In this document: in pieces, positions 39,550-62,567 of the stretch | Numbering within the stretch: the stretch's first letter is position 1 | Layout of the letters: every line of letters begins with the position of its first letter | DNA from: a virus | Virus record (IMG/VR): IMGVR_UViG_3300017763_004709 | Location: 1 to 64,000 of that record | Reading direction: 5' to 3' (one strand) | Length of the DNA stretch: 64,000 nucleotides | The notes under the pieces: generated by a model | Database searches by the model: none | Told to the model about the DNA's origin: nothing | What the model saw: only the letters and a program-made list of their open reading frames with translations | Program-made: the position numbers and the translations under genes

Positions 39550-40142
39550 TTTGTTACTTTTTTTCTTGAGAAATTTCTATATTCATCAATAATACTTATA
39601 ATATAAGGATCTAAAGGTTCTATACCTTCTCTTACAAATTTTTCTATTTCGTCTTTTTGATTATTATTAAAGTTACTTTTATAAATAGAAGAACGATATA
39701 CTCCTCTTGTTTTAGAAGGATTACCAAACACTTTAGAGAAAGGTTTTACATCTTTTATTATGGGCGAAAATGTTCCTATAAAAGAATGACTACCTACTGT
39801 AGAGTAATTTTGTATATGAGCATTATACTCTATATAAACATTATTTTGAATAACACTATGAAAACCTAAGTAACAACAACCTGTTATAGTATTATTATTG
39901 CCTATCAAAGTATCACTATTAATAGTAGTACTTGGGCCTATATAATTGCCACTTCCTATAACAGTATTCTCTCTGTAACCAGTTGCGCAGTTAATAACAC
40001 ATGCTGAAAGTATGGTATTGTTTTTACCTAGAGATATTCCATATTTATCATCTTTTACTAAAAACACCACTGAAGGGTCAATAGTATTAGAAGAATCTAT
40101 AGAAAATTCTATAATAGCTTTGGAGGCAGAGTATACTTTCAT
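39546..40142 (-). CDS. LpxA-like hexapeptide-repeat acyltransferase
   Basis: Hexapeptide repeats; KDVKPFSKVFGNP resembles LpxA DVPP...GN. Confidence 0.65.
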   Translation of the reverse strand: MKVYSASKAIIEFSIDSSNTIDPSVVFLVKDDKYGISLGKNNTILSACVINCATGYRENTVIGSGNYIGPSTTINSDTLIGNNNTITGCCYLGFHSVIQNNVYIEYNAHIQNYSTVGSHSFIGTFSPIIKDVKPFSKVFGNPSKTRGVYRSSIYKSNFNNNQKDEIEKFVREGIEPLDPYIISIIDEYRNFSRKKVTK

Positions 40143-40164
40143 AGTGCTATTCAAAATAATGAGT

Positions 40165-40428
40165 GTCACTTTTTCTGTTGCTAGGCAAGTGACCAGCCCC
40201 CTTAATCATGCAGCTAGTGCGTAATTAGATGGTGCAAAGTTATCGTTTGCGTTTGTAGTTTTTGGCTGAATATCGTAGGCCAACACGGTAATCTACTCTC
40301 ATCTCTACACACCTGTCGATCCTAGTTCAGCCCCATAAGAAACACACTTATCTTAATGTGTTTATGGTGGAGCTGTCGGGTACTGCCCCCGAGTCCAGTA
40401 TGTATGTTGAATTGTATCAACGATTACA
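40165..40428 (-). ncRNA. ssrA: Two-piece (circularly permuted) tmRNA
   Basis: Acceptor piece ending GGCAGTACCCGACAGCTCCACCA (3' end 40365), 30-nt spacer, coding piece starting GGGGCTGAA (40334); tag ANDNFAPSNYALAA* at 40250-40206; outer ends approximate. Confidence 0.93.
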
Positions 40429-40461
40429 AAAAAGAGGTTTAAAACGATAGATGTATCGAAG

Positions 40462-40581
40462 TTAGTGACCCCTTAATTCCTTATTTATTTTTTGTCTTGT
40501 TTTCTTATTAGATAGTTGTTTTAGTTTCTTTTTCCATGCCCTAGATAGTGCATGAGGTATTACGCCGTTTTTAGGATTCAT
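40462..40581 (-). CDS. Basic micro-protein (39 aa; not in ORF track)
   Basis: AGGAG RBS; MNPKNGVIPHALSRAWKKKLKQLSNKKTRQKINKELRGH. Confidence 0.6.
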   Translation of the reverse strand: MNPKNGVIPHALSRAWKKKLKQLSNKKTRQKINKELRGH

Positions 40582-59840: not shown

Positions 59841-59974
59841 GGGGCTGGTCAAGTGATGCCAGTAAACCATAAAAATCACTATGGGTTATGTTAAACTATC
59901 CTATCCGAAAAAAATTGTTTAACCACTATTCTGCTAGTGTAACTAAGTCCGTTATTTCGGAAACGGCAGCAGAT
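59841..59974 (+). ncRNA. Candidate structured RNA (kissing loops + pseudoknot)
   Basis: Multiple helices in a non-coding gap ending in a terminator. Confidence 0.5.
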
Positions 59975-60011
59975 AAAAAGGCGTTCTAACTTATAGTAAG
60001 AGCGCCTTTTT
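59975..60011 (+). terminator. Intrinsic terminator
   Basis: AAAAAGGCGTTCT...AGAGCGCCTTTTT. Confidence 0.8.
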
Positions 60012-60038
60012 ACTTTTTTAATTATAAGGAAAATATAA

Positions 60039-60617
60039 ATGTCTACCGTACATAAGATATTAAAAAATGCGTTAAAAAACATGAACTATGTAGGCTCCGG
60101 GTGTTATGCTGCTGCTTTTGATAGTAATAAAGAAATAGTTAAAATAGGAGCAGATATATTTGACCCTTATTTATATTATCTAAGAGAAATAAAATCATTA
60201 AAAAATACACATTTTCCTAAATTTCATAGTTTATATGTAGATAACTATAATGAGTTTTATACTGTAAAGCTAGAGAAACTATATCCTTTAAATGATAAAC
60301 AACTTAAAGATTACGAACAACTATACGACTGGGCAGTAAAAGGAGAAGATAAACCTTGTTGGGCTAGTGAAGAGCTAGAAGAAGCTGTTAATAAGATAGT
60401 AGATTTAGCAGATGTAATATCTTTACAACCTTCAGAGGATTTAGAGTATGAAGGGCAGACAGGAGATTGTAGATTAGACCTTCATGAAGCCAATGTAATG
60501 AGTCGATCTGATGGGACATTAGTATTTACAGATCCTCTTTCAGATGCCCAAATGTTTGATGCCCCTGCTATAGAAGAGTGGATAGATGACTATCTTTATT
60601 ATACCAATAAAAAGTAG
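60039..60617 (+). CDS. Protein kinase-like (T7 gp0.7-type fold)
   Basis: GSGCYAAAF, IVKI, DLHEANVM, FTDP. Confidence 0.75.
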   Translation: MSTVHKILKNALKNMNYVGSGCYAAAFDSNKEIVKIGADIFDPYLYYLREIKSLKNTHFPKFHSLYVDNYNEFYTVKLEKLYPLNDKQLKDYEQLYDWAVKGEDKPCWASEELEEAVNKIVDLADVISLQPSEDLEYEGQTGDCRLDLHEANVMSRSDGTLVFTDPLSDAQMFDAPAIEEWIDDYLYYTNKK

Positions 60618-60625
60618 TTTTATTC

Positions 60626-60654
60626 TTGCTTATTACTTATTTTAATAGTATTAT
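60626..60654 (+). promoter_or_regulatory. Promoter of the tRNA cluster (leaderless first ORF)
   Basis: TTGCTT-N17-TATTAT, 6 nt before ATG 60661. Confidence 0.7.
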
Positions 60655-60660
60655 GATTAT

Positions 60661-60813
60661 ATGATGAAAAAACAAATAAAATTTAATATAAAATCTGTAG
60701 AAGATTTACATAAACAAATGAATGAGTGGGTAGATGCAAATCTACCTATAGAAGAGATAAATAATACTAACTTAGCGGCTACAATGCTAAAAAGTATAGG
60801 AATAAAAGTATAG
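60661..60813 (+). CDS. Small protein (50 aa; not in ORF track); stop codon overlaps tRNA-Arg G1
   Basis: MMKKQIKF...LKSIGIKV-TAG. Confidence 0.55.
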   Translation: MMKKQIKFNIKSVEDLHKQMNEWVDANLPIEEINNTNLAATMLKSIGIKV

Positions 60814-60889
60814 GTCTCTTAGCTCAGCTGGATAGAGCAAGTGCCTTCTAAGCACTAGGTCTCAGGTTCGAATCCTGAAGAGATCACCA
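60813..60889 (+). tRNA. tRNA-Arg(UCU)
   Basis: Cloverleaf; loop CTTCTAA; encoded CCA. Confidence 0.95.
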
Positions 60890-60890
60890 A

Positions 60891-61068
60891 GATAGGCAAA
60901 GGGGAAAGCCTAGCGATTTCGCTAAACGTACCCAACAAAGGTCCTAGACATGGAAGAGTGGCCCTCTAGTCTAGTCCGGTATAAGCACTGGTACCGCATA
61001 ACCCAGTCGGTTGCTGCATACGTCAAATGCAGATACGTGGGGAGGCACTGCAGAAAGCCTCCCCACCG
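60891..61068 (+). ncRNA. Candidate pseudoknot-rich RNA directly after tRNA-Arg
   Basis: GC-rich with six stems, including a 10-bp terminal helix. Confidence 0.6.
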
Positions 61069-61106
61069 ATTCTATAGAGTTATATCTATGTAACAAAGGA
61101 TACACT

Positions 61107-61265
61107 ATGAGAAGAGGTACTAAGCCTAACCCCATAGATTATATTAAAGTAAGAATAGATCTACTACGTGAAGAAAAGAAAAAAAACGAAGATAATACTG
61201 CTCACTTAGTATTAGATAAAGCAATTTATGAGTTAAGTGTTGTTTTAGATCTTCTAATAAGATAG
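61107..61265 (+). CDS. Small hypothetical protein
   Basis: AAGGA RBS before ATG 61107. Confidence 0.6.
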   Translation: MRRGTKPNPIDYIKVRIDLLREEKKKNEDNTAHLVLDKAIYELSVVLDLLIR

Positions 61266-61277
61266 TAGTTATACTAT

Positions 61278-61352
61278 TCCGGCGTAGCTCAGTGGTAGAG
61301 CAGTTGACTGTTAATCAATTGGTCGTAGGTTCGACCCCTACCGCCGGAGCCA
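61278..61352 (+). tRNA. tRNA-Asn(GUU)
   Basis: Cloverleaf; loop CTGTTAA; GCCA end. Confidence 0.95.
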
Positions 61353-61357
61353 AATTA

Positions 61358-61433
61358 GGGTCTGTAGCTTAGTGGTTAAAGCTGCCCGCTCATAACGGGT
61401 AGATCGTAGGTTCGAATCCTACCGGACCCACCA
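61358..61433 (+). tRNA. tRNA with CAU anticodon, probably Ile2
   Basis: GGGTCTG acceptor and CCGCTCATAACGG arm resemble proteobacterial Ile2; no initiator C1:A72 mismatch. Confidence 0.85.
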
Positions 61434-61436
61434 TAT

Positions 61437-61508
61437 ATGGGTGAAGTGTTAATGGTTGCACATCGGATTCCAAATCCGAAAGACAGAGTTCGATTCTTTG
61501 CACCTATG
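61437..61508 (+). tRNA. tRNA-Trp(CCA)
   Basis: ATGGGTG/CACCTAT acceptor; loop TTCCAAA; no encoded CCA. Confidence 0.85.
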
Positions 61509-61525
61509 CCCAAAGGAATATTAGT

Positions 61526-61750
61526 ATGTATACAGTAGAATTTGATCATGATGAAGTAATTATAACTATATTAGACGACTCAGGAAGTTTACCAGATCTA
61601 ATAATAAATAGTTATGACGATGGAGTATACATTACTCAAATGGATGAAGATGGTGATTATGATGATATACTTAACATAACTCCAGAAATGTGGCAAGAGT
61701 TGATTTTAGCTATAAACAGCTCAGAAGGAGCTTATGTTATAAAGAGATAA
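61526..61750 (+). CDS. Acidic hypothetical protein
   Basis: AAGGA RBS; MYTVEFDHDE. Confidence 0.65.
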   Translation: MYTVEFDHDEVIITILDDSGSLPDLIINSYDDGVYITQMDEDGDYDDILNITPEMWQELILAINSSEGAYVIKR

Positions 61751-61834
61751 GCCCGCGTGATGGAATGGTAGACATAACAGACTTAAAATCTGTGGCCGCA
61801 AGGCGTGCCGGTTCGAGTCCGGCCGCGGGTACCA
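61751..61834 (+). tRNA. tRNA-Leu(UAA)
   Basis: Long variable arm; loop CTTAAAA; CCA. Confidence 0.95.
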
Positions 61835-61839
61835 ACCAG

Positions 61840-61974
61840 CGTGACAACTACGCACTCAAATATACTCCGGACTCTGTATTGGTTGAGAAATAGTTGTACT
61901 TGTAAGTCGTACTTTGTAGAGTATTTACTTATTATCTGAGGGGGTTATATAAGTAAACATTCCAAAGAGCGACC
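61840..61974 (+). ncRNA. Candidate two-domain structured RNA after tRNA-Leu
   Basis: Two interrupted hairpins with a possible loop-loop contact, then a terminator. Confidence 0.5.
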
Positions 61975-62012
61975 ACAGCCCTCCTAGTTTTTTATACTAG
62001 GAGGGCTGTTTT
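61975..62012 (+). terminator. Intrinsic terminator of the tRNA cluster
   Basis: ACAGCCCTCCTAGT/ACTAGGAGGGCTGT 14-bp stem + TTT. Confidence 0.85.
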
Positions 62013-62078
62013 ACATCTAAACTTAATAAAATAAAATTTAACATTAGTCATAAATAATGATACTATAGAGTATATAAA

Positions 62079-62567
62079 ATGTTTACAAAACAACAAATTG
62101 AAGAATTAGTAGAATTACTAGTGACGCTGGATTCTAATACAAAAATATATCTAGGCTGCGATTCTGTAACTTACTTTAAAAATAATAGAAAAAAAGCAAA
62201 ATATGCTACGGTACTTATAGTACATAAAAATAGTAAAAATGGTTGTAAATTATTCTCTAATACCTCTTATGAAGTAGATTATGATTTAAAAAAAGACAGA
62301 CCTAAAATGAGAATGATTTATGAGGCTAGAAAAGTTTGTGAATTATATATACAAGTAGCGCCTTTTATAGATGAGTTTGATATAGAAATACATTTAGATA
62401 TAAACACAAATCCTAAGTTCGGATCTAATTGTGCTGCATCGGAAGCCGCTGGATATATTTTAGGTATGACAGGCATCACACCAAAATTAAAACCTTTTGG
62501 TTTTGCAGCGAGCTACGGTGCAGATAGTGTAGCCAAAGGTAGAGGAGTAGTTATTGTACCACACTAG
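62079..62567 (+). CDS. RNase H-like (YkuK/DUF458-type) protein
   Basis: IYLGCDS, EIHLDIN, AASYGAD. Confidence 0.8.
   Translation: MFTKQQIEELVELLVTLDSNTKIYLGCDSVTYFKNNRKKAKYATVLIVHKNSKNGCKLFSNTSYEVDYDLKKDRPKMRMIYEARKVCELYIQVAPFIDEFDIEIHLDINTNPKFGSNCAASEAAGYILGMTGITPKLKPFGFAASYGADSVAKGRGVVIVPH

Follow-up and report, generated by a model that had tools for sequence, protein, structure and literature searches.

A stretch of 64,000 nucleotides from a virus (positions 1 to 64,000 of the IMG/VR record IMGVR_UViG_3300017763_004709, hereafter the window) carries a tRNA-Arg(UCU) gene with an encoded CCA end at 60813..60889 on the + strand (called by ARAGORN, and scored at 68.4 bits by the Rfam tRNA model). 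The 3' end of this gene is the 5' neighbor of an RNA element that spans positions 60890-61074 (+) and is followed by a tRNA-Asn gene. The element is presumably co-transcribed with the neighboring tRNAs, and a scan for promoters and terminators between tRNA-Arg and tRNA-Asn returned no match. An initial annotation, made from the letters alone, had singled out this place as a GC-rich island in an AT-rich genome, and the composition bears this out: the GC content is ~50% over 60875-61100 versus ~25-33% in the flanks, in a genome of ~30% GC. The window copy is ~180 nucleotides long, with a conserved core of ~135-150 nucleotides. The comparisons described below make it nearly certain that the element is a real structured RNA gene.

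Homologues were collected in steps. A 192-amino acid protein encoded next to the element was used as bait and led to six viral loci with the element, at 100-76% identity. A conserved block of 30 nucleotides, GTCGNTTGYTGCAYACGTNANATGCARATA, was then used as a pattern and retrieved 47 loci in IMG/VR, while a looser version of it retrieved 51 IMG/VR loci and 82 metagenome loci. After removal of duplicates, 79 distinct copies remained, all from marine viral and metagenome contigs. A covariance model, R1, was built from 33 sequences and used to align all 79 copies (alignment A4); 25 copies carrying an additional 5' domain were aligned separately (alignment A5). R1 finds the loci G000-G005 at 1e-27 or better, and in the window it matches positions 60935-61074 with 142 bits. 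Sequencing runs in which the window's stretch occurs come from many studies, and are metagenomes of seawater or of marine viruses. The element was found only in viral and marine contigs: the looser core pattern, searched as an exact match, gave 0 matches in 185,579 prokaryote genomes (one per species), and a blastn search of 50,697 phage records with the element gave no match at E = 10.

The initial annotation had also held that the element is not a tRNA and belongs to no recognized family, and both statements stand. ARAGORN and the Rfam tRNA model passed over the element without calling a cloverleaf, and there is no CCA at its 3' end. The 4227 models of Rfam 15, run at the gathering cut-offs on the window, at E up to 10 with lax filters on 60600-62200, and on 12 homologous loci, identified tRNAs only. 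The best Rfam match on the element itself was a 22-bit hit to a miRNA model on the opposite strand, which we take as chance.

Folded as a single sequence, the element is only modestly more stable than its shuffled versions (z = -2.6 on the + strand and -2.5 on the - strand), so the case for structure rests on comparison. In alignment A4, 98.1% of the cells at paired positions form standard pairs, versus 32-46% when the partners are slid by one to three columns; 16 of the 33 pairs have changed on both sides, and none of 500 shuffled alignments reached the observed values. The initial annotation had named a lack of covariation as something that would refute it, and clear covariation is what the alignment contains. 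G.U pairs outnumber A.C combinations by 102 to 4, which indicates that selection acts on RNA transcribed from the + strand. A protein-coding reading was ruled out, because an open frame on the + strand occurs in just 8 of the 79 copies and the lengths are not multiples of three. Carriers with gene 32 products (gp32) of only 49-63% identity have RNAs that are 69-91% identical and share the nearly invariant block of 30 nucleotides; this difference points to strong selection on the RNA.

The modules follow one another in a fixed order: an optional 5' pseudoknot domain, hairpin P1, an H-type pseudoknot, hairpin P3 and hairpin P4. Covariation shows that the RNA folds compactly, with two pseudoknots and three hairpins, in line with the multi-pseudoknot RNA first proposed, and in each of the two pseudoknots two interleaved helices, both supported by comparison, were found, as is expected of the H-type. 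The optional 5' domain (60893..60934, +) is missing from roughly half of the copies. Its first stem had been noticed as TAGGC 60893/GCCTA 60908 and is recovered in A5 as AGGC 60894-60897 paired with GCCT 60908-60911. A second stem noticed there, TAGCGA 60911/TCGCTA 60919, is likewise present and contains the inserted hairpin AGC 60912-60914/GCT 60921-60923. What had escaped notice is that GGG 60901-60903, in the loop of the first stem, pairs with CCC 60931-60933 across the inserted hairpin, which turns the 5' part into a second pseudoknot. Pairing over this domain in A5 (n=25) reaches 94%, versus 12-40% for slid partners, and both partners have changed in 7 of 11 pairs, among them pairs 26-58 and 27-57 of the pseudoknot. 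Hairpin P1 (60944..60974, +) consists of CTAGAC 60944-60949 and GTCTAG 60969-60974, as first described, and 5 of its 7 stem pairs change on both sides. A candidate closing helix, in which the GAUUU tail would pair with the run of A residues preceding P1, was rejected, as it was 48% paired and did not covary.

The central H-type pseudoknot (60977..61007, +) was also part of the initial annotation and is fully borne out in A4. Its first helix, S1, joins CGGTA 60977-60981 to TACCG 60992-60996 and is invariant, while its second helix, S2, joins ACTGG 60987-60991 to CCAGT 61003-61007 and is 100% paired, with an end pair that reads GC in 60 copies, GU in 8 and AU in 6 and is never mismatched. The third loop is A-rich. 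One could imagine instead a riboswitch or cis-regulator that controls the downstream gene through alternative pairing, either of the repeated GUCGGU with ACCG or through an AACC/GGUU hairpin that replaces S2. The sequence allows such exchanges, since ACCG 60993-60996 is able to pair with either CGGU copy, and RNAalifold prefers the AACC/GGUU hairpin that competes with S2. This hairpin is compatible with the alignment, but the co-changes at A82-U99 favor S2: all six copies with an AU end pair have the right partner, which speaks for the pseudoknot. Moreover, the genes downstream of the element vary (unrelated open reading frames (ORFs), or a tRNA within 37-50 nucleotides), and no conserved expression platform accompanies them. 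A riboswitch thus appears very improbable.

Downstream of the pseudoknot lies the most conserved part of the element (61008..61035, +), formed by the linker CGGTTG, hairpin P3 and ATA; in all copies found by pattern, the block of 30 nucleotides is identical save for 4 degenerate positions. P3 pairs CTGCAT 61014-61019 with ATGCAG 61027-61032 around the loop ACGTCAA 61020-61026 (ACGUNAA in the family). This stem had been predicted correctly, and its closing pair switches between CG (54 copies) and UA (20 copies). The further proposal that ACGT in this loop pairs with an ACGT at 61035 did not survive comparison, as the downstream ACGT occurs only in the window's own clade and other copies read AUAGAAAG, AUAAGGGG and so on at this place. 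That the P3 loop mimics an anticodon (C-G-U-N-A-A, as in GUN tRNAs) is offered as an idea only. The last module, P4 (61037..61066, +), is a hairpin of 10 base pairs formed by GTGGGGAGGC at 61037 and GCCTCCCCAC at 61057, again as initially described, and 9 of its 10 pairs change on both sides. For the purine-rich 5' strand, a Shine-Dalgarno mimic or a triplex was considered, but transitions via G.U intermediates explain why this strand has kept its orientation. P4 is followed by a short 3' tail (61067..61074, +) with a conserved YGA (CGA 61067-61069 in the window), whose G and A are nearly invariant and with which the covariance-model match ends.

A second feature that had been missed is that the loops of P4 and P1 carry self-complementary words. 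The P4 loop has 10 nucleotides, ACTGCAGAAA, with the palindrome CTGCAG at 61048-61053. This hexamer is palindromic in all 76 distinct sequences, where it is spelled CUGCAG (54), CCUAGG (20) or CUCGAG (2). Treated as pairs, its positions are 100% self-complementary, and 2 of the 3 pairs covary. The central columns, 148-149, read GC 54 times, UA 20 times and CG twice; these bases are adjacent, too close to form a pair inside a single loop. When the loop was left out of tree building, the resulting tree required at least 8 changes of state of the hexamer, and non-palindromic intermediates were not seen. A second pair of covarying neighbors emerged from an unbiased mutual-information scan, in the apex of P1 (60950-60968 in the window, where the self-complementary word is GGCC at 60960-60963). 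Here columns 35-36 read GC in 37 sequences, CG in 19, UA in 12, AU in 2 and something else in 5, and are self-complementary in 70 of 75. The P1 apices comprise 13 different perfect palindromes of 6-14 nucleotides, including CCCGUACGGG, CCUACGUAGG, CCUUAAGG, CCUCGAGG, GGUACC, GGAUCC, AGGGCCCU and GGCGCGCC. For several of them, the duplex is predicted at -12.6 to -22.8 kcal/mol versus -0.1 to -4.1 kcal/mol for the hairpin, and the duplex of the P4 hexamer at about -10 kcal/mol. The ACGU of the P3 loop is also self-complementary, but without variation across copies.

The pattern of covariation taken as the criterion for symmetric kissing loops (bioRxiv 10.1101/2024.12.08.627333) was found in both the P4 hexamer and the P1 apex. 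These two loops carry the signature of symmetric kissing between copies: because the palindromes are preserved while adjacent bases covary, copies of the RNA most likely dock on each other. Perfect palindromes of this kind at the P1 apex and in the P4 loop would also be expected of an element that acts as DNA, be it a cruciform, a protein-binding palindrome, an origin or a recombination site. Such an element should not, however, show the excess of G.U over A.C noted above, which reflects selection on one transcribed strand, nor covarying pseudoknot pairings, and the palindromes differ among members in such a way that no single conserved protein site emerges. We therefore consider action at the DNA level extremely improbable.

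Several natural variants depart from the common architecture. Two loci, L006 (4891-5000) and L007 (4866-4975), are missing the whole central pseudoknot and have a single GTCG motif in place of the two GTCGGT repeats that flank the pseudoknot in other copies, suggesting an origin by deletion between the repeats; L007 is additionally devoid of the 5' hairpins. In L004 (4882-5021), the 5' pseudoknot has lost its 3' strand to a 9-nucleotide deletion. Among the 79 copies of A4, the type of P1 apex, the type of P4 hexamer, the P3 closing pair and the presence of the 5' domain combine freely, and the CCUAGG hexamer is found with five classes of P1 apex. Such free combination suggests that modules have been shuffled through recombination between phages.

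Each genome has one copy of the RNA, and this includes a complete genome of 221 kb. Directly abutting a tRNA (Arg-UCU, Pro-UGG, Met-CAU or Trp), upstream or downstream, are 29 of the 79 distinct copies. In a further group, the RNA comes after the stop codon of gene 32, which encodes a T4-type single-strand DNA-binding protein with ~50% identity to its Kyanoviridae counterparts. Comparison of the carrier loci revealed no constant gene neighbor, save gene 32 in this subset and the tRNAs. Four of the loci (L034, L035, L042 and L050) share a common sequence, GAAAACTATTTTGATCAGCGTCCATGTAGAGGGGACCGGGCCTGAAAG, ~10-60 nucleotides past the element despite differing upstream contexts; Rfam gave no match on this stretch, which could be the start of a conserved neighboring gene or further RNA.

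The positions of the copies invite a simpler explanation, in which the element has no function in trans and acts in cis between cistrons. As a folded 3' end or processing module, it would either shield the upstream transcript (the mRNA of gene 32 or a precursor tRNA) from 3' exonucleases or guide cleavage by an RNase. Every copy is on the coding strand, with a stop codon or a tRNA immediately preceding it and another gene or tRNA starting shortly after it, and in one subclass P4 is followed by UUUUGAUUUAU, which resembles an intrinsic terminator. In many members, the window included, no U-tract follows P4. A terminator in the window itself was rejected: P4 is followed there by CGATTCTATAG, the terminator scan calls nothing, and U-rich tails are confined to the one subclass. 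A stabilizer acting in cis would not need a nearly invariant block of 30 nucleotides, two pseudoknots and palindromic loops. It would also have to be reconciled with one copy per genome rather than one per operon, and with the quite different upstream genes that it would serve in unrelated phages. For these reasons, we regard a role limited to cis as unlikely.

Carriers belong to phages that appear unrelated. Three large ones hold the T4 gp23 capsid protein and are thus T4-like. No gp23 match was found in the window's phage, the record of which is 67% complete; its family-A DNA polymerase has its best matches in Demerecviridae (38-40% over 97-99% of the length), and its other proteins include a lambda-J-like tail fiber, a minor tail protein, a DnaB-like helicase, an SbcC-like nuclease and an NAD-dependent ligase. 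By its gene content, the window's phage looks T5-like, related to Demerecviridae, so that the RNA gene would occur in both T4-like and T5-like lineages. Presence in both kinds of phages fits a portable function and suggests one that is self-contained and not dependent on the proteins of one phage. The window also encodes, at 40115-40468 (-), a permuted two-piece transfer-messenger RNA (tmRNA) of the alphaproteobacterial type with the tag ANDNFAPSNYALAA; together with the ~30% GC of the genome, this hints at a streamlined marine alphaproteobacterium as the host.

A hint of expression comes from a metatranscriptome contig of 151 nucleotides that matches the window exactly over 60894-61044, and pieces of relatives occur in other RNA libraries. 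These data are contigs and show no RNA ends; the depth over tRNAs stems from unrelated tRNAs, and stretches left uncovered carry no meaning.

The reading that we favor, with moderate confidence, is that of a processed, stable RNA that acts in trans and associates with itself via symmetric kissing loops. The RNA would be transcribed inside a polycistronic unit of tRNAs and small ORFs and freed by the tRNA-processing nucleases of the host, its 5' end being set by maturation of the 3' end of the abutting tRNA-Arg and its 3' end being protected by the 10-base pair P4 hairpin. The P4 hexamer and the P1 apex palindrome (4-14 nucleotides) would each pair with the same loop of another copy, a third contact of this kind may be made by the invariant ACGU of P3, and the active form would be a homodimer or a higher homo-oligomer. 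We would guess that the invariant single-stranded CAGUCGGUUG and the P3 loop offer the likely surface for a conserved partner, and that this partner probably belongs to the translation or RNA-processing machinery of the host, a guess that is prompted by the tie to tRNA islands.

Release from a polycistronic transcript could alternatively be the work of the RNA itself, as a new class of self-cleaving ribozyme. A compact pseudoknotted fold, invariant unpaired nucleotides, a place between cistrons and a phage origin would all suit a ribozyme, and some known ribozymes dimerize. On the other hand, the ribozyme families of Rfam found no match even at an E-value of 10 with lax filters, nothing in the data marks a cleavage site, and beside tRNAs the cuts are already supplied by RNase P and 3' processing of the host. 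A ribozyme is accordingly a distant prospect.

Some observations weigh against a self-associating RNA that acts in trans. The discrete transcript, the RNA ends and the dimer are all predicted from sequence, and the 151-nucleotide contig from an RNA library could stem from contaminating DNA, just as contigs cannot show ends. There are three P4 spellings only, and these may have spread by recombination rather than by repeated mutation, which makes the count of independent events uncertain. The P1 apex falls in a poorly aligned insert region of the model-fitted alignment, and in the commonest P1 class, to which the window belongs, the palindrome is just GGCC. As the ACGU of P3 is invariant, covariation lends no support to pairing there. 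Finally, the loss of the central pseudoknot in L006 and L007 and the damaged 5' domain of L004 mean that some modules are dispensable or that some copies are decaying.

Stable RNAs other than tRNAs are known from the tRNA clusters of phages T4 and T5, and the initial annotation had drawn this comparison. It holds as an analogy of place. The T4 species 1 and 2 RNAs (rnaC and rnaD) lie in a tRNA cluster right after tRNA-Arg, like the element, and the eight stable RNAs of T5 (RNAI, III, IV, RNA1, RNA2, RNA2H, RNA3 and RNAX) alternate with tRNAs and small ORFs in an arrangement like that of the window. It fails as homology. R1, run at E up to 1, gave no match on the whole genomes of the cultured phages T4 (with rnaC/rnaD), T5 (with its stable RNAs) and Vibrio phage Ceto, and no match either on Methylophilales phage Melnitz and phage C48C1, which are likewise cultured. 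Of the two T4 RNAs, rnaD terminates with CACCA and rnaC contains a T-arm-like GGTTCGAATCC, whereas the element has neither; the T5 record annotates RNA1, RNA2 and RNA3 as tRNA-like, whereas the element is not tRNA-like. The resemblance is thus one of place and not of descent.

A closer likeness in kind is found in the GOLLD, ROOL and OLE RNAs, whose homo-oligomers consist of RNA only (bioRxiv 10.1101/2024.12.08.627333). In cryo-EM, OLE L9.3 and GOLLD L21a are symmetric kissing-loop bridges, and loop words that switch from one palindrome to another were used as evolutionary support (bioRxiv 10.1101/2024.12.08.627333; Kretsch et al.). Like the element, GOLLD and ROOL are encoded by phages or prophages, often by tRNA islands, and contain several pseudoknots; in one case, from a marine sample, GOLLD is encoded downstream of tRNA-Met. 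Symmetric kissing loops are among the contacts that join copies of GOLLD, ROOL and OLE, and the P4 loop and P1 apex share the covariation signature of such loops. These RNAs differ from the element in that they measure ~600-800 nucleotides or more versus ~140-185 here (4-6 times as long), are unrelated in sequence, and are known multimers, whereas multimerization of the element is only predicted. Searches with GOLLD (RF01998), ROOL (RF03087) and OLE gave no match on the element even at E = 10.

Two smaller systems offer further parallels. The dimerization initiation site (DIS) of HIV-1 is a palindrome of 6 nucleotides in a hairpin loop of 9-10 nucleotides, flanked by unpaired purines, and different lineages use alternative palindromes. 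The P4 loop (A-CUGCAG-AAA) likewise holds its palindrome within flanking purines. The DIS joins two genomic RNAs for packaging, whereas the element is a small phage RNA with a second, and perhaps a third, self-complementary loop, and there is no homology between the two. The packaging RNA (pRNA) of phi29 is a phage RNA of ~120-170 nucleotides that multimerizes via loop-loop pairing. Its loops are complementary to each other and not to themselves, its gene is located at one genome end in phi29-like podoviruses, and it serves the packaging motor. Both it and the element would be small phage RNAs with loop-loop contacts (predicted for the element), with no Rfam match to link them.

A catalogue of 8,495 unnamed csRNAs of 29-151 nucleotides was drawn from IMG/VR, the same data source, with the same approach (PMC10690425), and may contain part of the motif; its main text, to which our comparison was limited, describes no such motif. 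A conserved 15-mer of the family was not found in print in the literature searched. Having no match in Rfam 15, the family appears to be uncatalogued. It is carried by many uncultured ocean phages.

Other features near the element deserve mention. The 192-amino acid ORF used as bait lies at 60039-60617 (+), one small ORF upstream of the tRNA-Arg and the RNA element, and matches the PHROG of T7 gp0.7-type protein kinase, which is described as a host transcription inhibitor acting on RNase III and RNase E. Upstream of this kinase-like ORF, a second candidate noncoding RNA (59883-60017, +) has a weak R1 match of 18-20 bits (E ~0.02-0.04 in 391 kb), and the same is true of L003. Its modules follow the same order as those of the family, with AGUC(C/G)GUU and GCAGAUA, common to both, before the terminal hairpin; its loops are not clearly palindromic and it is confined to the window's own clade. 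This RNA may be a distant paralogue of the element. On the other side, the region after tRNA-Leu (61839-62010, +) contains a second structured stretch with ACCA at its end, and then a strong hairpin, CAGCCCTCCTAG...CTAGGAGGGCTG, followed by TTTT, where transcription of the tRNA unit probably terminates. A match to the Phe_leader model in this region (32.6 bits versus a cut-off of 55) looks like chance.

Phage tRNA islands have harbored stable RNAs of unassigned role since the work on T4 and T5 in the 1970s, and GOLLD and ROOL, which are similarly placed, were lately shown to be RNA-only cages. The present family bears the mark of self-association in two loops, of the same evolutionary kind as in GOLLD and OLE. 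It is abundant in seawater, and its small size makes synthesis, mutagenesis and structure work easy. Rather speculatively, and against the odds as we judge them, the RNA may be a miniature RNA-only assembly in which monomers of ~140-185 nucleotides join through three self-complementary loops (the P1 apex, the ACGU of P3 and P4) into closed multimers or lattices, with its gene a mobile accessory that is passed between T4-like and T5-like ocean phages and acts on the tRNA or translation machinery of the host. If so, a quarter of the length would do what ROOL and GOLLD do with 600-800 nucleotides. The family makes two questions directly testable, namely why phages put self-assembling RNAs by their tRNAs, and how small a natural self-assembling RNA can be.
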